From Gaiellaceae bacterium (GTDB lineage Bacteria > Actinomycetota > Thermoleophilia > Gaiellales > Gaiellaceae): a stretch of DNA of 38,083 nt. The position numbers and the translations under genes were made by a program. Position 1 is the stretch's first letter; every line of letters starts with the position of its first letter. The DNA lies in assembly GCA_036511185.1 (NCBI GenBank), contig DATCCQ010000254.1:1-38083 (forward strand), written 5' to 3'. The notes beneath the pieces were generated by a model. It had not been told where the DNA came from and did not search any database. It saw nothing but the letters and a program-made list of their open reading frames with translations. Below are positions 23,096-36,762 of this stretch, piece by piece.

Positions 23096-24127
23096 ATGCC
23101 CATCGTTGATCCCAAGACCTACACGCAGATGCTCGACGCCGCTAGGGCCGGCAAGTTCGCCTACCCGGCGATCAACATCTCCTCCTCGGAGTCCCTGAAC
23201 GCCGCTCTCCGCGGTTTCGTCGAGGCCAAGTCCGACGGCATCGTCCAGGTCTCGACCGGCGGTGGCGAGTTCGGCTCCGGCGCAACCGTGAAAGACGGCG
23301 TCCTGGGCGCAGTCGCACTGGCCGAGTACGCGCACATCGTCGCTGAGAAGTGCCCGGTCAACATCGCCCTGCACACCGACCACTGCCATCCCGAGAAGGT
23401 GGGCACCTTCTTGAGGCCACTGCTCGAAGTGTCGCGCAAGCGCGTCGCGGCGGGCAAGGGACCGCTCTTCCAGAGCCACATGTTCGACGGCTCGACGCTA
23501 CCGCTGGCCGAGAACATGAAGATCGCCAAGGAGCTTCTAGCCGAATGCGCGGAGCTGGACATCATCCTCGAGATCGAGGCCGGCGTCGTCGGCGGCGAGG
23601 AGGACGGAGTCAGTAACGAAGGTGTCGGGCGCGAGAAGCTCTACACGACCCCCGAGGACATGCTCGCCGTGGCCGATGCGCTCGGCACCGGCGACAAGGG
23701 CCAGTACATGTTCGCGGCCACCTTCGGCAACGTGCACGGCGTCTACAAGCCGGGCAACGTGGTGCTCAAGCCGACCATCCTGCGCGACGGCCAGGCTGCG
23801 GTCGAGAAGAAGTACGGAAAAGAAGGCCGCTTCCTGCTCGTCTTCCACGGCGGCTCGGGCTCGGCCCTGGAGGAGATCCGCGAGACCCTCGATTACGGCG
23901 TCGTCAAGATGAACGTCGACACCGACACGCAGTACGCGCTGACCCGTGCGATCGCCGATCACATGTTCAAGAACTACGATGGCGTGCTCAAGATCGACGG
24001 TGAGGTCGGAGTCAAGAAGGTCTACGACCCGCGCGCCTGGGGCAAGGCCGGCGAGGCTTCGATGGCCGCCCGTGTCGCCCTAGCCTGCGACGACCTGCGC
24101 TCGACGGGAACGACGCTGCTCAAGTAA
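23096..24127 (+). CDS. fbaA: class II fructose-1,6-bisphosphate aldolase
   Basis: 343 aa with the N-terminus MPIVDPKTYTQMLDAARAGKFAYPAINISSSESLNAALRGF and the motifs HTDHC and FHGGSGS. It closely resembles actinobacterial class II FBA. A GAGAGG Shine-Dalgarno-like sequence is upstream. Confidence 0.95.
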   Translation: MPIVDPKTYTQMLDAARAGKFAYPAINISSSESLNAALRGFVEAKSDGIVQVSTGGGEFGSGATVKDGVLGAVALAEYAHIVAEKCPVNIALHTDHCHPEKVGTFLRPLLEVSRKRVAAGKGPLFQSHMFDGSTLPLAENMKIAKELLAECAELDIILEIEAGVVGGEEDGVSNEGVGREKLYTTPEDMLAVADALGTGDKGQYMFAATFGNVHGVYKPGNVVLKPTILRDGQAAVEKKYGKEGRFLLVFHGGSGSALEEIRETLDYGVVKMNVDTDTQYALTRAIADHMFKNYDGVLKIDGEVGVKKVYDPRAWGKAGEASMAARVALACDDLRSTGTTLLK

Positions 24128-28628: not shown

Positions 28629-30635
28629 ATGTCTCACGACGCCGACAAGCTGATCCGCCAGCTCTCACTGGTCGCCTTTTTGATGGCTGAGCGCCGTCCG
28701 GTCACGGCTCGCGACGTGAAATCTAACGTCGAGGGATACTCGGAGATGTCCGATGAAGCCTTCGCTCGGCGCTACTACGCCGACCGCTCGGAGCTCACCT
28801 CGCTTGGTGTACCGCTTCGCTCGCAGCGGGACGAGTTCACCGGAGAGGAGCTCTACACGCTTCGCTCCGAGCAGTACTTCCTACCGCCCCTCGAGCTAAC
28901 CGACGAAGAGCTGGCAGCGTTGCAGACCTCTCTCTACCTGCTGGAAGGGAAATTCGCCTACGCCGAGCCCTTCCGATTGGCACTGCAGAACCTGGCTCTC
29001 GGTCGCCCCGGCTTCAACGAGCAGCCGACTACAACGGCCGTCCGCGTCGAGGTGCTCGATCCCGATTACACGCCCGAGACACCCGGGCGCCTAGGCAAGC
29101 TGGAGGCCGCCATCTCCAAGCAGCGAACGGTCCGCTTCGAGTACTGGTCGATCTCGCACGACACGCTTTCCGAGCGCGTCATAAACCCCTACGGGCTGCT
29201 CTCTGACAACGGGCTCTGGTACGTGATCGGCTTCGATCTCGAGCGCCAGGCGATGCGCACCTTCCGCGTCTCGCGCATCCGCTCGGACATCCGTTTTGCC
29301 ACCCGCAAAGAGCGCGACTTCCGCATTCCGCCAGAGTTCGATATCGATGAATACCGCGGGCGAGCTCCCTGGCAGATCGGAGCGCTCGTGGGCGAGGCTC
29401 AGATCGGTGTCGGGCGCGAGACGGCCTGGTGGGTCGAGCGCACCTACGGAAACGCCGGGCAGGTAGAGGATGGGGTCTTCACGACTGGATACTCCTCGCT
29501 CGGTCTGCTTGCGGCCTGGGTCTTACGTCAGGACGGACGCGCGATACCGCTGGAGCCGCCGGAGTTGCGCGAGGAAGTCAATGCAGCGCTGCGACTGGTC
29601 GAGAAGCGCCACTCCTCCGCGCCGCTCAAGCCCGCGCGAGAGTGCGATGAGGTGACAGACAGTGCGCAAGCGGCCGACCACTCCTCAGGCCCGGTTGCCC
29701 CGGAGCGCTTCGCGCTTCTGCAGGCCCTGCTCGCGCATCTTCTGACCGCTTGCGGCGAGGAGAACGAGGCGGAGATTCCCGCCAGCGAGATTGTCAAGAA
29801 CCTGCGCATCCCGCTCGAGGACCTCGAGGAGCATCTCTCGATGCTCAACCTCGTCAACTTCGGCGGCGGCTGCTACACCGTCTACGCGGAGCTCGACGGC
29901 GACACAGTACGCATCGACAAGGAGCTTTTTGGCGACACCTTCCGCGCATCGCCTCGCCTGACGCCGCTCGAGGCGCGGGCGATCCGGCTGGCGCTAGAGT
30001 TCGTGGGCCCGATGATCGCGGCCGACGCGCACACACCTCTGGAGCGTGTGCGACGGAAGCTCGAAGAGACCTTCGGGCAGTTCGAGCTTCTACAAACGCC
30101 GGAGCCGCAGGTGAGCGTGGCCGAGGAAGATCTGATCGCCCGCTTGGCCGAAGGCATCCGCGTGCGCGAGCTGGTCGAGCTGGAGTACCTGAAGGAAGGT
30201 GACGAAGAGGCCTCGCGGCGACTGACCGAGCCCTACGCGCTCGAGCGGAAGCTGCCCTTCTGGTACGTGCATACCTGGGACCGCACCACGGGCGGCGAGC
30301 GCAGCTTCCGCCTTGACCGGATGCGCAGCGCCAGGCTCACCGGCAAGAACTTCGAGCAGCGGCCCGGCTTCGAGCCGCGCGGGCTCCGCGATGCGCGCCA
30401 GGCGCACATTTGGTACTCGCCCAAGGTGGCCCGCTGGCGCCTGGAGCGAGGCGGCGCTAAAAGGCTCATCGACGGGGCCGCACTGGCCGAAACGGCGGTC
30501 GGAAGCCCGGAGTGGCTGGCGGGAGAGATCCTCTCGCACCGTGGGGAAGCCGTCGTGCTCAAGCCTGGTGACCTGCGCGAGCTCGTCGCTGCCAGAGCAC
30601 GAGAGCTGACCGCGGCTTTCGCCGCTACGCACTAG
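28629..30635 (+). CDS. pafBC: fused PafB-PafC-like transcriptional regulator (two tandem HTH-WYL-WCX modules)
   Basis: 668 aa. Module 1 has LIRQLSLVAFLMAERRPVTARDV (HTH) and ...VRFEYWSISHDTLSERVINPYGLLSDNGLWYVIGFDLERQAMRTFRVSRI (WYL). Module 2 has FALLQALLAHLL... and ...VELEYLKEGDEEASRRLTEPYALERKLPFWYVHTWDRTTGGERSFRLDRM (WYL). Confidence 0.85.
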   Translation: MSHDADKLIRQLSLVAFLMAERRPVTARDVKSNVEGYSEMSDEAFARRYYADRSELTSLGVPLRSQRDEFTGEELYTLRSEQYFLPPLELTDEELAALQTSLYLLEGKFAYAEPFRLALQNLALGRPGFNEQPTTTAVRVEVLDPDYTPETPGRLGKLEAAISKQRTVRFEYWSISHDTLSERVINPYGLLSDNGLWYVIGFDLERQAMRTFRVSRIRSDIRFATRKERDFRIPPEFDIDEYRGRAPWQIGALVGEAQIGVGRETAWWVERTYGNAGQVEDGVFTTGYSSLGLLAAWVLRQDGRAIPLEPPELREEVNAALRLVEKRHSSAPLKPARECDEVTDSAQAADHSSGPVAPERFALLQALLAHLLTACGEENEAEIPASEIVKNLRIPLEDLEEHLSMLNLVNFGGGCYTVYAELDGDTVRIDKELFGDTFRASPRLTPLEARAIRLALEFVGPMIAADAHTPLERVRRKLEETFGQFELLQTPEPQVSVAEEDLIARLAEGIRVRELVELEYLKEGDEEASRRLTEPYALERKLPFWYVHTWDRTTGGERSFRLDRMRSARLTGKNFEQRPGFEPRGLRDARQAHIWYSPKVARWRLERGGAKRLIDGAALAETAVGSPEWLAGEILSHRGEAVVLKPGDLRELVAARARELTAAFAATH

Positions 30636-31633
30636 AAGAGGCGCTCGTGGAGGCGACTCAGAGCCCAGCGGGCATGCTCGGCGAGTAACTCGTCTCCGCC
30701 ACCTGCGTAGCGCTCTAGCAACGGCTCGTGCTCACGAGCACCGGCACTGGCCATGGCCACCAGGGCGTTTCGGCGTAGGAAGCGCGGATCGCGGCGCGGG
30801 AAATAGAGCCGCTGGTAGCGCGCTACCAATTCCGCGTCGTCAGCCTTCAGCCAGCCTTCGAGTGAGACAAGCGGTTCTGCCCCGTCGTGCGCCAGCGCGG
30901 CTTTGCGCTTTTCGACCCCTCGGTTCCAGGGACAGACCTGCTGGCAGATGTCGCAGCCGTAGACACTTGCGCCCATTCGCTCGCGCATCGGCTCGGGCAT
31001 AGCCGTACGCGCCTGCGTCCAGTAGGAGAGGCAGAGGCGCGCGTCGAGCACACCCTCCTGCACAAGCGCGGCGGTCGGGCAGGCCTCGATACACAATCGA
31101 CAGGCGCCGCAGTGTCGCCCAAGCGGCTCCCCAGGCTCGAGCGCAACGTCGCTCACGAGCGTCCCGAGCACGATCCAGGAACCGAGCCGGGGAACTATTA
31201 CAAGCCCGTTCTTGCCGAAGAAGCCGAGACCGGCGCGTACAGCCGCCTCGCGATCAACGTGCTCGCTGGAGTCGACCAGGACGCGATAGGCGCCGCCGAT
31301 ACGCTCAGCCAGTGCCGCGAGCTTGAGCCGAAGCTCGGCGTAGTAGTCGCGCCAGGCGTGCCGCGCCAGGCGCCCCTCCCCCGCGCCCGGCTCGGGGCCC
31401 GGCAGATAATAGGAAAGCGCCGCGGAGACGACGCTGCGAGCGCCCTCGAGCAGGCGCTCCGGATGGCAGGAGAGCTCTGGTCGGGCGACCGTGAAGCTCA
31501 GGTCCGCGAACAGCCCCTGCGCCCGTCGCTCGGCGATCGCGCGCTCGGCGCTCTCGTAGGGCCCGGCCGGCGCCGCGGCCACCGCGTCCAAGCCCAGCTC
31601 CGAGGCGATCTCGCTGAGTCGAGCGGCATTCAT
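30632..31633 (-). CDS. queG: tRNA epoxyqueuosine(34) reductase
   Basis: 4Fe-4S motifs CGACRLCIEACP and CDICQQVCPWN, a YWTQ segment and C-terminal HEAT-like repeats. ATG 31633 (MNAARLSEIASELG) is preferred. The maximal ORF to 31861 would overlap the upstream gene and is Arg/Gly-rich. Confidence 0.88.
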   Translation of the reverse strand: MNAARLSEIASELGLDAVAAAPAGPYESAERAIAERRAQGLFADLSFTVARPELSCHPERLLEGARSVVSAALSYYLPGPEPGAGEGRLARHAWRDYYAELRLKLAALAERIGGAYRVLVDSSEHVDREAAVRAGLGFFGKNGLVIVPRLGSWIVLGTLVSDVALEPGEPLGRHCGACRLCIEACPTAALVQEGVLDARLCLSYWTQARTAMPEPMRERMGASVYGCDICQQVCPWNRGVEKRKAALAHDGAEPLVSLEGWLKADDAELVARYQRLYFPRRDPRFLRRNALVAMASAGAREHEPLLERYAGGGDELLAEHARWALSRLHERLF

Positions 31634-31704
31634 GACGGCATTCTGACGACCCCGATTGGATATTTCGGTAGCGACGCGAACGTAGGGCTGCCGGCAGCCG
31701 CGAC

Positions 31705-32007
31705 TCAGTAACCGAAACCGAGCAGGAGCTTGGCGTCCTCGGACATCCGCTCCGGTGTCCAGGGAGGATCCCAGACCAGCTCTAGTACCGCCTTCTCGAT
31801 CCCCGGTATCTCGCGTAGCGCTTCCAGGATCTGCTGGTGAATGAGCGGGCCGGCCGGACAACCGATCGAGGTCAGGCTGTAAAAAACCTTGACTTCGTTG
31901 CCCACGAATTTAACGTCGTAGAGAAGACCGAGCTCAACGATGTCCAGCCCCAGCTCCGGGTCGAAGACCTGGCGCAGAGCCTCGGTTACATCGTCGGTCG
32001 TGAGCAC
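31705..32007 (-). CDS. DUF59/MIP18-family Fe-S cluster assembly protein (SufT-like)
   Basis: 100 aa with a GTG start. Motifs are DPELGLDIVELGLLYDV and LTSIGCPAG (conserved Cys), and the C-terminus contains WDPPWTPERMS. Confidence 0.85.
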   Translation of the reverse strand: MLTTDDVTEALRQVFDPELGLDIVELGLLYDVKFVGNEVKVFYSLTSIGCPAGPLIHQQILEALREIPGIEKAVLELVWDPPWTPERMSEDAKLLLGFGY

Positions 32008-32267: not shown

Positions 32268-33287
32268 CTAGTAACCGAGCAGGCGCACCTCTTCGCGCCG
32301 CTCACGGGCGAAGAAGTGAATGCTGTCGATGAAACGCACCCAGTTGCAGCGCGTACACATGACAAGGGTATGGGTACGGGCACTGTCAGCGAGGAAGCGA
32401 ACGCCGCGCAGGAGATCGCCACCCGAGACGCCGGTCGCGGCGAAGATGATCTCGCCCGGCACCAGGTCGGTCGTGCTGAAGATGCGCTCGATATCGTCGA
32501 TTCCGGTTGCTTTGGCCTGCTCGATCTCGCGTCTCGACACCGGCCAGAGCTGAGCCTGGAGCTCGCCTCCGAGGCAGCGAAGCGCGGCCGCGGTCAGCAC
32601 GGCCTGGCGCGTGCCGCCGATGCCAATCGCTAGATGGTCGTTGGTGCCGCGGATCGCCGCCGAGATCGAGGCTGTCACGTCTCCGTCGGGAATCAACTTG
32701 ATGCGCGCACCTGCTTGCCTTATCTCGTCGATCAGGTCGTGGTGACGAGGGCGATCGAGCACGATCGTGGTGATGTCGTTGGGGTTGCGTCCGAAGGCCT
32801 TGGCAATCGCGACGATGTTCTCGCCGACCGGCTTGCGCAGGTCGATCTTGCCACGAGCACGCGGCCCGACGGATATCCGCCGCATGTACATATCAGGAAG
32901 AGTCACGAACGCACCCGGCTCTCCGATGGCGATCATTGACATCGCGCCCGGGCCTCCCCGGGCCACGACCTCACGTCCCTCGAGCGGATCGAGAGCCAGA
33001 TCGACCGGCGTCCCGCCGGCGCCGATCTGCTGCCCGGCGGCAAGCCCTCCCTCGTCAGAGGCGCCGACGACGATACGACCGTCGATCGGGAGATTGGCGA
33101 GCGTGCTCTGCATCGCGGTGAAAGCAGCCTCCGCGGCGCCCTCGCGGTCGGCGCGGCCCAACCAGCGTGCGCTGGCCAGCGCGGCCGCGTCGGTAGCCCT
33201 GGCGTAGTGCGCGCAAATGCAGGTCGAGCCGGGCGGCTCTGAGACAGGAGCTGCTTTCTTCTTCCTATCTGTCTTGGACGTGCTCAT
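32268..33287 (-). CDS. glpX: class II fructose-1,6-bisphosphatase (GlpX type)
   Basis: 339 aa with ATDAAALASARWLGRADREGA, LALDPLEGR (metal and substrate site), IPDGDV and GIGGTRQAV segments typical of GlpX. It is the last gene of an ATGA-coupled operon. Confidence 0.88.
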   Translation of the reverse strand: MSTSKTDRKKKAAPVSEPPGSTCICAHYARATDAAALASARWLGRADREGAAEAAFTAMQSTLANLPIDGRIVVGASDEGGLAAGQQIGAGGTPVDLALDPLEGREVVARGGPGAMSMIAIGEPGAFVTLPDMYMRRISVGPRARGKIDLRKPVGENIVAIAKAFGRNPNDITTIVLDRPRHHDLIDEIRQAGARIKLIPDGDVTASISAAIRGTNDHLAIGIGGTRQAVLTAAALRCLGGELQAQLWPVSRREIEQAKATGIDDIERIFSTTDLVPGEIIFAATGVSGGDLLRGVRFLADSARTHTLVMCTRCNWVRFIDSIHFFARERREEVRLLGY

Positions 33288-34192
33288 TTCACCCCTTGTA
33301 CGCGCTCGGCGCCTTCCAGTACCAGCTCGATCACCGCGCCGACGGTGCGATCGACGTTCTCATTCTCTATCACCGGGACGCCAGATTTGCGAGCGTGCTT
33401 GAGCAAGAAGTCTTGAACCTGGCGAATCTCGCCGAGACTTTGGAGGTACTTCTCAACCGGGCGCACGCCTTCGGTAGCAAGGTCGCGCACGAAGAAGTTC
33501 GAGGCGTGAACCTCCTCGTTGTAGACCACGAGCTGGCATTGGACGACAAGCGCTCCCTCGATCTCGCACGGCAGCATCCCCGGAACCAGGTGCACGCCCT
33601 CGAGCACCATCGACCAGCCCTCCTCGATCGCACGGTCGATCGAAGCGCGCACTCCCACGAGCACGTTCTTCGTCTGCTGGAGGAAACCGCGGACAAGTGG
33701 GTCGCCCTCCTCGCGCTCGGCCTCCGGCAGCGCCTCCCAGGCCTTGAAGCTCGAGTAGTGGATCGTGGGCATGAACTCCTCGGAGAAAAAGGCGCGCATC
33801 GTCTGACGGATGAAGTCGGTCGAGGAGAGGCGCGTAATGCCGAGCCGGTGCGCGACCTCGGCGGCGATTGTCGTCTTGCCCGTGCCGGTGGCGCCACCGA
33901 TGAGCACGATCAACGGTATGTCGAGCTGATCGAGATCGTGGTAGCGGCGTAGGCGCTCGACCGCCTCGTGGCCCTCGACCGGGCCCAGTATTTCGATCGC
34001 TAGCTCGTGCAGGCGCTCGAGCTCGACAACGCGCTCGTCGCGCCTGGCCAGGTCGATCTCCACCTGCCGTGCCAGCTCGTAAGCGCGTACGCCGCCGACT
34101 CCAACGGCGATCAGCGCCCGCGCCATCAAGCCCTTCGAATAGGGAAGGCTTTCGTCGCCCAGCGGGAAGGGATTGTGGCGATGTTGGGTCAT
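33284..34192 (-). CDS. 2-phosphoglycerate kinase-like protein (COG2074)
   Basis: 302 aa with the N-terminal PYSKGLMARALIAVGV...AYELARQVE segment followed by the P-loop LIGGATGTGKTTIAAEVAHRLGI and STDFIRQ. This is the layout of archaeal 2PGK. It has ATGA overlaps on both sides. Confidence 0.75.
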   Translation of the reverse strand: MTQHRHNPFPLGDESLPYSKGLMARALIAVGVGGVRAYELARQVEIDLARRDERVVELERLHELAIEILGPVEGHEAVERLRRYHDLDQLDIPLIVLIGGATGTGKTTIAAEVAHRLGITRLSSTDFIRQTMRAFFSEEFMPTIHYSSFKAWEALPEAEREEGDPLVRGFLQQTKNVLVGVRASIDRAIEEGWSMVLEGVHLVPGMLPCEIEGALVVQCQLVVYNEEVHASNFFVRDLATEGVRPVEKYLQSLGEIRQVQDFLLKHARKSGVPVIENENVDRTVGAVIELVLEGAERVQGVK

Positions 34193-35481
34193 GCGACGGT
34201 CGCTTTCGCTCGCGCTTGCTTGGCCAGCTCGAGTAGCGCAGGCGCCAGCGCGGTCTCGCCCTCCAGCGGCACCAGCTCGTTGTCGATGAGCCCAACCTCC
34301 CGTCCACGCGCCACCGCAGCCTCGATCACAACGTCAACGGCGGCCGCCTTCAGCTCGACCAGGAAAACCTCGGCGTCGATCTGGGCCAACTCTTCGGCCA
34401 GTTCCTGGCGCCGGGCGAGATTGCCCGAGACGTGAACCACCTCGGCGCCGTGAGCGCGCTCCAGATGCTCGCCGAGCGAGCGAAGCGCCTTCTTCGGCGC
34501 TGTGGTGAAGAGCGCCACCTTCTTCCCGGCGACGGGCGCGAGCGGACGCGGGCGCATCGAGGTGGCGATCACCGGCAGATCGGGTCGCAGCGCGGCGATT
34601 GCGGCGCGAAGCTGATCGAGGCGCTCACCGGGCTCGGCGAAGCTCAGCACGAGCAGGTCGGAGATGAGAATGCGGTAGGCGTTCAGGTAGCCGCAGGCCA
34701 GCTCTGCGTCCTGGTGCGCGCTCACGACGAGCACGCGCCGATCAGTGGCGATCGGCGGCAAGGAAGCACCGCTTCCCTCGAAGATGACCAGCTCGGGATG
34801 GCGCTCGAGCGCCAGCTCAGCTGCCTGGGCCACGTTCGAATACCCGACCGCGCCTGCCAGGCCGCCGCCGCAACGGCGCGCCCCGACGCTGACGATCTCG
34901 CCCAGCAGGGCGTCCTCCAGATAGTCCGAAGCCGCGTGCTGACCCGAGCGAGCGAGCTCGAGTAGCTCCTCGACGCTCGGCGGAGTCTCGCGCAGCTCCG
35001 GCTCGGGCGGTCCGCCCCGCCCCATCGCCACAACTACGACGTCGAGCTGCTGCGCGCAAACACGGGCCAGCTGTATTGCCAGCGCCGTCTTCCCAACCCG
35101 CTTGCCGGTGCCGATCACACTCAGGCTGGGAAGGGCGAAAGGTTCGAGAGCAGGCGGATTAAAGCGGAAATCCGCGCCCACGTAGGGCAGCCCGAGCGCC
35201 AGCACGCGACTCACCTCAGCCAGACGTTCGCGCGGGCCTAGAACGGGCTCGTCCGAAAGATCGACAACGAGCTCGGGCGAGTAGCTCTCGACCCCCTGCT
35301 CGATCGAGGCGGCGAGCGGAACACCGTAGAGCTCTTCGCCCGTCTGCGCCGGCGAGCGAAGCTTCTCTCCGCCGCCCACGTTGACGCAGCAGACGAACTC
35401 GTAGGGCAGAGCGCTCAGCGCATCGCGCACGACCCGCGGATAGTGCTCGCCGTCGATCAGCGCGAGCGCAGCGGCCTTCAT
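34189..35481 (-). CDS. cpgS: cyclic 2,3-diphosphoglycerate synthetase-like protein
   Basis: 430 aa. The conserved blocks are LIDGEHYP, DLSDEPVL, GTGKRVGKTA (P-loop), VAMGRGGPPEPE, HAASDYLEDAL, RRCGGG, EGSGASLPP, LFTTAP and ELKAAAVDV. They match my recollection of the methanogen cDPGS family. It is adjacent to a 2PGK-like gene. Confidence 0.7.
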   Translation of the reverse strand: MKAAALALIDGEHYPRVVRDALSALPYEFVCCVNVGGGEKLRSPAQTGEELYGVPLAASIEQGVESYSPELVVDLSDEPVLGPRERLAEVSRVLALGLPYVGADFRFNPPALEPFALPSLSVIGTGKRVGKTALAIQLARVCAQQLDVVVVAMGRGGPPEPELRETPPSVEELLELARSGQHAASDYLEDALLGEIVSVGARRCGGGLAGAVGYSNVAQAAELALERHPELVIFEGSGASLPPIATDRRVLVVSAHQDAELACGYLNAYRILISDLLVLSFAEPGERLDQLRAAIAALRPDLPVIATSMRPRPLAPVAGKKVALFTTAPKKALRSLGEHLERAHGAEVVHVSGNLARRQELAEELAQIDAEVFLVELKAAAVDVVIEAAVARGREVGLIDNELVPLEGETALAPALLELAKQARAKATVA

Positions 35482-36284
35482 CGAGTAGTGACCTCGTCCT
35501 CGATCGACGTGGTGTACTTGTGGAACTCGAGCGTGTCGGTATCGAACTCGATGATGCGCTCGATTCCGTGGAAGGGGTAGTGGCGATCGACCTCGATCCT
35601 CTTCCCGCTGAGCTTGATCACGTTGTAACAGGGCCTGATGTTTCCGCGCAGTCGCAGCGACGAGACCGTCCCCGCGTTAACGACGAACAGACTCTCCAGC
35701 TTCCAGGCATAGGGAACGTGCTTGTGGCCGCACAGAACGAGATTTACGCCCGCGCGCTGCAGGCACTCGATCGCGTCGCCGGCGTCGTGCACGATATTGC
35801 GCTCCCGGCCGGTACCGGGCACCGGCAACAGATGGTGATGGAGGACGAAGATGCGCAGCGAGGCCGAGCGCGCGAACTGCTCCTCGATCCAGCGGTAGCG
35901 GCCGCGCCCAATCTGCCCGTAGTCAAGATCGGGAGCGGTGGAGTCGATCGCGACGATGCTGACCGGGCCCTTGTGCAGGACGGAGTTGCGCTCACCGAAG
36001 AGCTGCTCGAAGTGGACGTAGCCGACGTTGCGAGCGTCGTGGTTGCCCGGGATGACGACCATGCTCGGGCACTCGATGCGATCGAGGTAGGCCCGCGCCT
36101 GCGCGTACTCGCCCTTGAAACCGAAGGAGGTCAAGTCGCCCGAGCAGACGACCACATCGGGTGCGAGATCGTTGATCTCCGAGATGGCACGCTCCAGCAG
36201 GTTGGGGGCGAAGTATTGTTCGCCGCAGTGCAGATCGGAAATCTGGGCGATTCTGAAAACGCGACCGTCGTTCCGGCCCGGCAT
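35478..36284 (-). CDS. calcineurin-like metallophosphoesterase (CpdA/class III phosphodiesterase-like)
   Basis: 268 aa with the full motif set D-x-H (ISDLHCG), GD (CSGDLTS), GNHD, HHH and GHKH. Its stop overlaps the cpgS-like start (ATGA). Confidence 0.88.
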   Translation of the reverse strand: MPGRNDGRVFRIAQISDLHCGEQYFAPNLLERAISEINDLAPDVVVCSGDLTSFGFKGEYAQARAYLDRIECPSMVVIPGNHDARNVGYVHFEQLFGERNSVLHKGPVSIVAIDSTAPDLDYGQIGRGRYRWIEEQFARSASLRIFVLHHHLLPVPGTGRERNIVHDAGDAIECLQRAGVNLVLCGHKHVPYAWKLESLFVVNAGTVSSLRLRGNIRPCYNVIKLSGKRIEVDRHYPFHGIERIIEFDTDTLEFHKYTTSIEDEVTTR

Positions 36285-36393
36285 GGCCGAAGTGTATGCC
36301 GCGCAGAGCAGTTGGGGAAATATCGGCTTCGCTCGAGCTCCCGCAAAGGTGGCGCTCGGTAGCGTCCGACCGTATTGCTACGCTTGCCTGTAG

Positions 36394-36762
36394 ATGGGCT
36401 TCGAAAGCGCCGATTTGCAGGCAGATCGCAGCTCCAAACCCCCCCGGTTCGCGAACCAGGCTGAGGTTGAATGCGCCCGCATCCTCGACTATTACCGAAT
36501 CGCCTGGGAGTACGAGCCCACCTCTTTCGTGCTCGAACGCGACGAGGAAGGCCGCGTCAGCGAGGCTTTCACGCCCGACTTCTACCTTCCCGAGCAGGAT
36601 CTCTACCTGGAGATCACGGTGATGAAACAGTCGCTCGTAACGCGCAAGAACCGCAAGCTGCGCAAGCTACGAGCGCTGTACCCCGGAGTACGCGTCAAGC
36701 TCTTCTACCGGCGCGACGTTCAGCGCCTGGCCGAGCGCTTTCGCCTCGATCTGGCCTCCTAA
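36394..36762 (+). CDS. small hypothetical protein, PD-(D/E)XK nuclease-like (tentative)
   Basis: 122 aa with high GC3. It has AEVECARILD (helix with Glu), then FTPDFYLPEQDLYLEITVMK, resembling the E...PD...ExK core of restriction-endonuclease-fold proteins. The C-terminus is basic. Confidence 0.5.
   Translation: MGFESADLQADRSSKPPRFANQAEVECARILDYYRIAWEYEPTSFVLERDEEGRVSEAFTPDFYLPEQDLYLEITVMKQSLVTRKNRKLRKLRALYPGVRVKLFYRRDVQRLAERFRLDLAS

Follow-up and report, generated by a model that had tools for sequence, protein, structure and literature searches.

A translationally coupled four-gene operon for the predicted synthesis and turnover of cyclic 2,3-diphosphoglycerate in Gaiellales

Cyclic 2,3-diphosphoglycerate (cDPG) is presented in reviews and in the 2023 paper on the structure of its synthetase as exclusive to hyperthermophilic methanogens. 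The methanogen literature describes a cDPG metabolism that branches from and returns to gluconeogenesis, with a hydrolase that is inhibited by K+ and Pi, and regards the compound as a store of carbon and phosphate; no gene for this hydrolase is named in the open-access literature that we found. A whole-cell factory based on Thermus thermophilus has served for cDPG production, as stated by the authors of PMC10690619. In Methanothermus fervidus and Methanothermobacter, the synthetase gene (cpgS) has no 2-phosphoglycerate kinase (2PGK) or metallophosphoesterase (MPE) gene beside it and is followed by a RimB-like gene. Here, we analyzed a contig of 38,083 nucleotides from a Gaiellaceae bacterium (DATCCQ010000254.1, assembly GCA_036511185.1), the whole of which is called the window below. 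Both enzyme families of the M. fervidus pathway, cDPG synthetase (cDPGS) and 2PGK, are encoded in it but, unlike in M. fervidus, they are part of an overlapping operon that also encodes an MPE and a GlpX-like protein. The host also differs, being a high-GC soil bacterium, with close relatives in cold or temperate soils, and not a hyperthermophilic methanogen.

We consider it reasonably probable that this chromosomal locus of an uncultured soil bacterium of the Gaiellales is a four-gene operon, leaderless and translationally coupled, that serves as a module for both the synthesis and the turnover of cDPG. In the proposed scheme, 2PGK would convert 2-phosphoglycerate to 2,3-diphosphoglycerate (2,3-DPG), and cDPGS would use ATP to close the intramolecular pyrophosphate ring of cDPG, both steps being supported by homology. 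The MPE may convert cDPG back to 2,3-DPG and/or 2,3-DPG to phosphoglycerate and Pi, and the GlpX-like protein would most likely bind a ligand, act in regulation or be a phosphatase put to a new use, rather than serve as the gluconeogenic fructose-1,6-bisphosphatase (FBPase). cDPG itself could be a mobilisable reserve of carbon, phosphate and energy, or a compatible solute. Its production by the Gaiellales bacterium is likely on the strength of the homology. Other storage operons also pair a synthase with a hydrolase, ppk-ppx for polyphosphate being one example. The logic of transcribing the building and mobilising enzymes together is the same as that proposed here, but the enzyme families are unrelated and the analogy is functional only.

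The coupled operon and its cDPG synthetase

The four genes and their junctions, as defined by open reading frame (ORF) translation and by the sequence itself, are the following:

35478..36284, minus strand: gene 1, MPE, 268 aa
34189..35481, minus strand: gene 2, cDPGS homologue, 430 aa
33284..34192, minus strand: gene 3, 2PGK homologue, 302 aa
32268..33287, minus strand: gene 4, GlpX-like protein, 339 aa
35478..35481, minus strand: ATGA stop/start overlap of MPE and cDPGS, junction reading ...CGATGAAG
34189..34192, minus strand: ATGA stop/start overlap of cDPGS and 2PGK, junction reading ...GCATGACC
33284..33287, minus strand: ATGA stop/start overlap of 2PGK and GlpX-like, junction reading ...AAATGAGC

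An earlier reading made from the letters of this DNA (below, the sequence-only reading) had described the four minus-strand ORFs and the three ATGA overlaps, and the sequence and translations place them exactly where it did. It had also known of no description of such an arrangement. The arrangement is not unusual, being standard in Gaiellales, and the databases already name bacterial proteins cDPG synthetase.

The comparative data include two large sets of loci, and about 5-6 kb on either side of each cDPGS gene was covered. At least 8000 homologous proteins pass an E-value of 1e-10, and at least 428 stretches of species-representative genomes encode a cDPGS relative; the best 80 of these, all from metagenome-assembled genomes assigned to Gaiellales, Gaiellaceae, Thermoleophilia or Actinomycetota, form the Gaiellales neighbourhood set. 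A metagenome scan gave 80 more loci, 26 of them Methanobacteriales-like (low GC and/or a RimB gene) and 54 of other types. In the ten closest relatives (L001-L010), the cDPGS/2PGK and 2PGK/GlpX-like junctions are invariably of -4 nt, and the MPE/cDPGS junction is of -4 nt in six and of -7 or -10 in the remaining four. The MPE/cDPGS and cDPGS/2PGK junctions overlap or almost abut in most of the 80 Gaiellales loci, the latter being of -4 or -1 in most of them, and the 4-nt cDPGS/2PGK overlap is found again in Thermococcus (L089) and in an acidimicrobial locus (L088). Since these tight junctions are conserved across relatives, the arrangement goes beyond chance. All four genes are under purifying selection (dN/dS 0.04-0.16), and their GC content of 0.65-0.67 is the same as that of the rest of the window. 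Simple scans of the coding strand revealed no promoter-like or terminator-like site within the four-gene unit. The sole terminator-like hairpin of the region (33231-33256, plus strand) is antisense to the 2PGK/GlpX-like junction and is at chance level, with one found and 3.2 expected.

The 430-aa protein is a member of the cDPG synthetase family and is predicted to catalyze the reaction 2,3-DPG + ATP -> cDPG + ADP + Pi. Its best match in the PDB (phmmer) is the cDPGS entry 9sxb (E 4.1e-86, query residues 6-422), and it aligns over its full length with the M. fervidus enzyme (8ork/8oru; E 7.1e-79, query residues 6-419, 41.6% identity). The family had already been proposed from a series of sequence blocks, all of which are present (LIDGEHYP, DLSDEPVL, GTGKRVGKTA, VAMGRGGPPEPE, HAASDYLEDAL, RRCGGG, EGSGASLPP, LFTTAP and ELKAAAVDV), and the PDB matches and the conservation of all published ligands bear this assignment out. 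No match was obtained in our local copies of Pfam or NCBIfam, the former being older than the family PF27272 (CpgS_N). This unique N-terminal domain is carried, in precomputed annotations, by orthologues with 80-91% identity, which are named "2,3-diphosphoglycerate synthetase [Gaiellaceae bacterium]" at NCBI and "cyclic 2,3-diphosphoglycerate synthetase" at JGI.

In the M. fervidus complex, 2,3-DPG is contacted by K145, R146 and E45 of the partner subunit, with K46 beside it at the site; K149 and K406 provide charge shielding, T150 and D208 are Mg ligands, and ADP is contacted by E305, P335, T353 and E404 (2023 structure paper). Threading of the window protein through the HMMER alignment showed that the published ligands are kept as E39, K40, K127, R128, K131, T132, D186, E283, T327, E376 and K378. 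Indeed, E45, K46, D208, E305, T353, E404 and K406 of M. fervidus align one to one with E39, K40, D186, E283, T327, E376 and K378, respectively. The Walker A motif GTGKRxGKT, present as G124-T-G-K127-R128-V-G-K131-T132, covers the equivalents of K145, R146, K149 and T150, and the RPxP segment holding P335 is retained. The dN/dS of this gene is 0.10-0.16. The likeness to the M. fervidus pathway thus includes the two enzyme families, the Walker A motif, the 2,3-DPG, Mg and ADP ligands, and a 2PGK of equal length and domain layout.

A second described relative is the Thermococcus type of cDPGS (9SXB; L089, Thermococcus paralvinellae), in which, as in the window, the 2PGK gene directly follows that of cDPGS with a 4-nt overlap. 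The Thermococcus locus differs in having a 2PGK with an ATP-cone domain and a mannosylglycerate-synthase-like glycosyltransferase as neighbour, and in its lack of the MPE and the GlpX-like protein.

The kinase, phosphoesterase and GlpX-like partners

The 302-aa protein is a full-length homologue of the COG2074/2PGK family, clear at the superfamily level and not certified as an equivalog. It matches the NCBIfam models NF008994 (E 5.5e-84, 282.4 bits) and NF003259 (E 1.4e-80, 271 bits, profile positions 13-294 of 306) without reaching their equivalog cut-offs of 603 and 343 bits, respectively, and scores lower with the sister models NF008995 (143 bits) and NF008996, the mevalonate-3-phosphate 5-kinase (95 bits). 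Both blocks on which the sequence-only reading had based its 2PGK assignment, PYSKGLMARAL and GGATGTGKTT, are present, and the assignment to this family stands. The N-terminal P17-x-S19-x-G21 and the P-loop G99-T108 (GGATGTGKTT) are invariant among 43 cDPGS-linked homologues, including that of Thermococcus. A search of the PDB with this protein found no solved homologue. A 2PGK gene lies directly downstream of that of cDPGS in the window, in 78 of the 80 Gaiellales loci, in Thermococcus L089, in the Acidimicrobiia (L086 and L088) and in the Solirubrobacterales (L087), and is present in 24 of the 46 assessable other bacterial loci.

These kinase scores could be read to mean that the operon serves a different metabolite. 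The pathway would then stop at 2,3-DPG, used as a cofactor or regulator and trimmed by the MPE, or the cDPGS homologue would cyclise or ligate another phosphorylated acid, and no cDPG pool would form. Not only is 2PGK below the equivalog cut-offs, but identity to the characterised enzymes is about 34-42%, the adjacent 2PGK is absent in one clade, COG2074 includes kinases acting on other substrates, such as the mevalonate-3-phosphate 5-kinase, and the hosts are mesophiles in which the need for a thermoprotectant is not obvious. Against this, all 2,3-DPG contacts of the M. fervidus complex (E45', K145 and R146, with K46' beside them) and its Mg ligands T150 and D208 are conserved, and the scores with the 2PGK models (282 and 271 bits) are far above those with the sister families (143 and 95 bits). 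Moreover, the pairing of cDPGS with 2PGK is as in Thermococcus, and cpgS is also present in the mesophilic Methanobacterium and Methanobrevibacter. We therefore regard a different end product as rather improbable.

The product of gene 1 is a cytoplasmic protein of 268 aa that matches the Pfam family Metallophos (PF00149; E 2.3e-19). Its best PDB relatives, GpdQ (4e-9) and Rv0805 (2e-6), are distant. The five metal motifs are intact (D17-x-H19, G49-D50, G80-N81-H82-D83, H149-H151 and G186-H187-x-H189) and at least 95% conserved in 48 cDPGS-linked homologues. In addition, the subfamily has invariant residues of its own, namely R85, the P154xPGxGRER162 loop (with R160 and R162) and R213, and these arginines would suit a small polyanionic substrate. 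The calcineurin-like fold and the five metal motifs are shared with MPEs resembling class III phosphodiesterases (GpdQ of Enterobacter aerogenes, Rv0805 and CpdA/Icc). The window protein differs from these in belonging to a separate subfamily, marked by the conserved R85, R160, R162 and R213 and genomically tied to cDPGS.

The phosphoesterase is no incidental member of the operon, as it is the gene most consistently linked to that of cDPGS. It adjoins cDPGS in 78 of the 80 Gaiellales loci and in 39 of the 49 assessable other bacterial loci, and in none of the 26 archaeal-type loci. Across contexts and three gene orders, the MPE is the most constant partner of the bacterial cDPGS. It is also better conserved across clades, with identities of 51-84% (mostly 53-63%) versus 36-47% for cDPGS. 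In loci outside the Gaiellales, tblastn found MPEs 55-61% identical to that of the window next to cDPGS that are 36-42% identical. A homology search with the MPE matched only Gaiellales orthologues. Because of this pattern of linkage with cDPGS, we propose the MPE as a candidate cDPG or 2,3-DPG phosphohydrolase, and hence as a concrete candidate gene for cDPG breakdown.

The entire neighbourhood is syntenic across the Gaiellales, and the genes could have remained neighbours by inherited synteny only, with the MPE being a cyclic-nucleotide phosphodiesterase of the CpdA/Icc type unrelated to cDPG. The orthologues are called metallophosphoesterase or CpdA/Icc in the databases; the latter name, given by JGI, and the nature of the best PDB relatives, GpdQ and Rv0805, agree with such a function. 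We find this explanation very unlikely. The MPE scores at 41.4 bits with the CpdA model NF008359, far from the cut-off of 225, and at 41.6 bits with SpdA, whose cut-off is 400. Furthermore, the MPE-cDPGS linkage extends outside the Gaiellales, both in the hom-thrC...rho region and in a re-ordered cDPGS-2PGK-CBS-MPE cluster, and the start/stop overlaps imply co-translation.

Gene 4 had been presented by the sequence-only reading as the gluconeogenic FBPase GlpX, of which only the membership in the GlpX family was upheld. The protein matches PF03320 with an E-value of 7.3e-107 and passes, as a borderline case, the class II FBPase equivalog model TIGR00330 (272.7 bits, cut-off 259.3); the cDPGS-linked homologues score at 224-297 bits and thus straddle this cut-off. 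The PDB matches are to the cyanobacterial FBP/SBPase (about 1e-66) and to GlpX of Mycobacterium tuberculosis (2e-66). In class II FBPases, a threonine is the nucleophile (T90 in Escherichia coli, T84 in M. tuberculosis and T89 in Francisella tularensis), the T84A and T89A mutants being completely inactive and the Thr-to-Ser replacements partly active; metal site M1 is formed by E57 and the DPLE motif and site M2 by D116 and E214 (FBPase literature). At the position of the nucleophile, the window protein reads D100-P-L-E-G-R105, versus DPIDG-T84 in M. tuberculosis, DPLEG-T89 in Francisella and DPCEG-T in the cyanobacterial enzyme. In place of the M1 ligand E57 there is A76, and the loop around it (EGELDEAP) is shortened; Q228 stands where the M2 ligand E214 would be, and D100, E103 and D132 are retained. 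Also retained are the RPR 6-phosphate pocket (LDRPRHH), the IxDGD motif (IPDGDV) and the equivalents of D116 and Y118, with LDRPRHH and IPDGDV conserved among the Gaiellales homologues. The window protein therefore shares with GlpX of M. tuberculosis (Rv1099c), F. tularensis and E. coli the fold family, the DPxE part of M1, RPR, IxDGD and D116/Y118, and differs from them in having Arg105 for Thr, Ala76 for E57 and Gln228 for E214.

These replacements are not peculiar to the window. Among 77 cDPGS-linked GlpX homologues, the residue at the nucleophile position is R in 51, L in 15, A in 6, S in 4 and H in one, and in none of them is it T. In a second large clade, E57 is replaced by R and the first Asp by E. 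The GlpX-like proteins of a clade with no 2PGK within 4 kb (L101, L110, L124, L132-L134, L136-L139, L144, L146 and L147) have a VEPVEG-L motif, with Asp to Glu and Thr to Leu, together with the E57 to Arg replacement. The dN/dS of 0.05-0.09 is tighter than that of cDPGS. We conclude that the GlpX-like protein is functional but very probably not an FBPase, and that it is most likely a ligand-binding or regulatory pseudo-phosphatase, or a re-purposed phosphatase or hydrolase. The genes of the window that were scanned did not include a canonical FBPase.

The proposal that the operon is purely biosynthetic, with gene 4 as a working gluconeogenic FBPase tying it to the triose and hexose phosphate pool and the MPE as an accessory or unrelated protein, must be weighed against these data. 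It would account for the TIGR00330 and PF03320 scores (272.7 bits, over the cut-off of 259.3, and 7e-107) and for the retention of the FBP-binding RPR and IxDGD motifs. It would also agree with the presence of a transaldolase/FSA or phosphoglycerate mutase gene at the equivalent place in other clades, and with the link of methanogen cDPG metabolism to gluconeogenesis. The loss of the Thr nucleophile and of two metal ligands makes a coupling via FBPase activity doubtful. As described above, R105 takes the place of a residue whose mutation to Ala inactivates the enzyme, both E57 and E214 are replaced, the Thr is absent in 77 of 77 linked homologues, and these straddle the equivalog cut-off. The linkage of the MPE is, moreover, more constant than that of the GlpX-like protein. 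We consider a purely biosynthetic operon with an active FBPase to be unlikely.

Distribution and history of the cDPGS family

Clustering at 50% identity left 251 representatives with E <= 1e-30, or 1071 if the limit is relaxed to E <= 1e-3. The Gaiellales clade amounts to one or two of these cluster representatives, and all others are at most 51% identical. The named members of the other clusters include Bipolaricaulota, Actinomycetota, Solirubrobacterales, Acidimicrobiia, Acidimicrobiales and Thermococcus paralvinellae. A search with the M. fervidus cDPGS returned Methanobacteriales, including the mesophilic Methanobacterium and Methanobrevibacter. The close relatives of the window come from fen, palsa, peat, Siberian permafrost, and Danish and Antarctic soils, and with relatives living in cold or temperate soils and peat, protection against extreme heat is unlikely as the role of the pathway.

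Apart from loci truncated at the end of a contig, all Gaiellales loci have the MPE-cDPGS-2PGK order (each of the two genes flanking cDPGS is present in 78 of 80), and a GlpX-like gene comes next in 59 of the 80. The synteny extends to the M23 peptidase, hpt and 122-aa genes on one side of the operon and to an FeS-assembly gene, queG and a WYL-domain gene on the other. As the region is syntenic throughout the Gaiellales, we examined the linkage in more distant lineages, where tblastn supports the assignment of the neighbours. The orders found were a mannosylglycerate-synthase-like glycosyltransferase followed by cDPGS and 2PGK in Thermococcus (L089), apgM-cDPGS-2PGK-TAL/FSA-rho or cDPGS-2PGK alone in Acidimicrobiia, MPE-cDPGS-2PGK-rho in Solirubrobacterales, apgM...MPE-cDPGS-2PGK-TAL/FSA-rho in one further bacterial locus, and ABC transporter-cDPGS-iPGM in Bipolaricaulota.

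In the metagenome set, none of the 26 Methanobacteriales-like loci has an adjacent MPE or 2PGK. Among the 46 loci of other types with at least 1 kb of downstream sequence, we found 2PGK in 24, a GlpX-like gene in 17, TAL/FSA in 16 and iPGM in 6. The bacterial gene orders include MPE-cDPGS-2PGK-TAL-rho, MPE-cDPGS-2PGK-GlpX-like-rho, MPE-cDPGS-GlpX-like-rho and cDPGS-2PGK-CBS-MPE. The last of these is an alternative cluster that encodes cDPGS, 2PGK, a CBS-pair protein of 142-144 aa and a duplicated MPE of 499 aa (L151, 461-4683; L167, 1204-5399), in which the CBS-pair protein offers a loose parallel to the GlpX-like protein as a small-molecule-sensing component. Its junctions are mostly 4-nt overlaps, the others abutting, and in L167 the cluster lies beside genes for an ECF sigma factor and a PAS histidine kinase. 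The extra partners of cDPGS that recur act in lower glycolysis, in gluconeogenesis and in the pentose-phosphate pathway.

Several of the more distant loci have further features. A RimB-like (PF05618) gene follows cpgS in L081-L083 and in 12 of the 26 archaeal-type metagenome loci (for example, L096, L097, L120, L121 and L126). In Thermococcus (L089, 3467-7171), the glycosyltransferase gene directly upstream of cDPGS-2PGK belongs to PF21969, and this locus would be a cluster of two compatible-solute pathways. In the Bipolaricaulota-like loci L084, L094, L125, L141, L148 and L157, a cofactor-independent phosphoglycerate mutase gene comes directly after that of cDPGS, with no MPE and no recognisable 2PGK, and in L084 an ABC transporter precedes cDPGS.

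The pathway had been called archaeal-type, a label that we abandon. The family is deeply and widely bacterial, and the window cDPGS is equally far from its bacterial, including actinobacterial (36-43% identity), and archaeal (37-41%) relatives. In neighbor-joining trees, which are star-like and without bootstrap, the Methanobacteriales are a single clade nested within a series of many deeply branching bacterial ones. A recent transfer from archaea to bacteria is unsupported, given the native GC of the genes, the equal distance to bacterial and archaeal cDPGS, and the nested position of the Methanobacteriales.

Several observations count against an operon for cDPG synthesis and turnover. If a synthetase and a hydrolase are co-expressed, the result would be futile unless the enzymes are controlled post-translationally. 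As the 2PGK homologue reaches neither of the NCBIfam equivalog cut-offs, its substrate specificity is not guaranteed, and a clade with the order MPE-cDPGS-GlpX-like-rho has no 2PGK within 4 kb. The MPE, whose orthologues are called CpdA/Icc at JGI and whose substrate is inferred only, is not next to cDPGS in some other bacterial clades or in any of the archaeal loci examined. Of the 80 Gaiellales clusters, 21 lack the GlpX-like gene, or 19 if two truncated contigs are set aside. Finally, we found no report of cDPG from any bacterium in the open-access literature.

This last point agrees with the sequence-only reading, which had known of no biochemical demonstration of cDPG in a bacterium, and the open-access literature that we found contains no report of a bacterial cDPGS either. 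The enzyme is mentioned in 23 open-access papers; no bacterial homologue is the subject of the titles and abstracts listed, and the queries on bacteria returned a single paper, an archaeal one. As far as we have seen, the bacterial cDPGS is known to the databases, where thousands of proteins have been named automatically, and not to the literature. The new elements are the wide occurrence of the family among soil Actinomycetota, the conserved MPE partner, the catalytically disabled GlpX-like partner and the leaderless, overlapping architecture of the operon.

A complete 2PGK-cDPGS pair with an intact cDPGS active site is standard in the Gaiellales and their relatives among the Actinomycetota, bacteria with a major place in the communities of soil and peat. 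If these enzymes are active, cDPG would be a widespread bacterial metabolite, with a bearing on phosphorus and carbon storage in soils and on the tolerance of desiccation, freezing and oxidative stress. A bolder proposal, which we advance only tentatively, is that abundant mesophilic soil Actinomycetota (Gaiellales, Solirubrobacterales and some Acidimicrobiia) accumulate cDPG as a stress solute or as a reserve of carbon, phosphate and energy that can be mobilised. The MPE would then be the cDPG hydrolase, and the Thr-less GlpX-like protein a new pseudo-phosphatase that tunes the cycle by sensing diphosphoglycerate or a sugar bisphosphate. Such an accumulation, if true, would overturn the confinement of cDPG to hyperthermophilic methanogens. 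The GlpX-like proteins also make up a conserved family of Thr-less look-alikes of class II FBPase, whose members automated pipelines label as fructose-bisphosphatase. In addition, mesophilic variants of cDPGS and 2PGK could aid the enzymatic production of this commercially interesting extremolyte.

Upstream signals and the surrounding window

One candidate expression signal was identified in the sequence ahead of gene 1:

36291..36296, minus strand: candidate -10 promoter box TACACT, 6 nt before the ATG of gene 1 at 36284

In 59 of 74 Gaiellales loci, and despite diverged flanks, a TANNNT hexamer (TATGCT, TACACT or TAGACT) precedes the start codon of the MPE gene by 5-7 nt, versus a chance expectation of about 2% per site as roughly estimated from base composition. 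A scan with the sigma-70 consensus found no promoter here, and the conserved box emerged from the comparative alignment only. TACACT is a probable -10 box. With the box 6 nt ahead of the ATG, the mRNA of the operon would be leaderless and would start at 36284 or close to it; the geometry of the box fits this prediction, and no Shine-Dalgarno-like sequence was found ahead of gene 1. Leaderless transcripts are common in Actinomycetota.

The TANNNT box is itself preceded, at a distance of about 18-19 nt, by a conserved (G/A)TTTCC block. The intergenic region between the 122-aa gene and the MPE gene (36297-36393) also holds a conserved block, GTAGCA-N-GGTCGGACGC, in the Gaiellales loci (L001-L080), and a more distant Gaiellales clade has "GGTAGC...CGGAC" about 17 nt upstream of the -10 box. 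The GTAGCA block could be an operator or a promoter element. The 122-aa gene itself (36394-36762, plus strand) is divergent from the operon and is 64-98% identical in all Gaiellales loci, which is above the conservation of cDPGS. Its product belongs to no Pfam or NCBIfam family and has a weak PDB match to T7 endonuclease I (E 0.14); the segment TPDFYLPEQDLYLEITVMK resembles a PD-(D/E)xK nuclease motif.

The remaining window is ordinary core chromosome, with the dcw cluster, secDF, tgt, queA, a class II fructose-bisphosphate aldolase gene, two-component systems, a WYL/PafBC-like gene and queG; an Rfam scan of the whole window gave no match. The aldolase gene (23096-24127, plus strand) is about 8 kb from the operon. 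The queG ORF (30632-31861, minus strand, 409 aa) has a TTG start, and about 130 residues precede the first Pfam domain; its true start probably lies further downstream than listed. The queuosine genes tgt, queA and queG are dispersed over the window.

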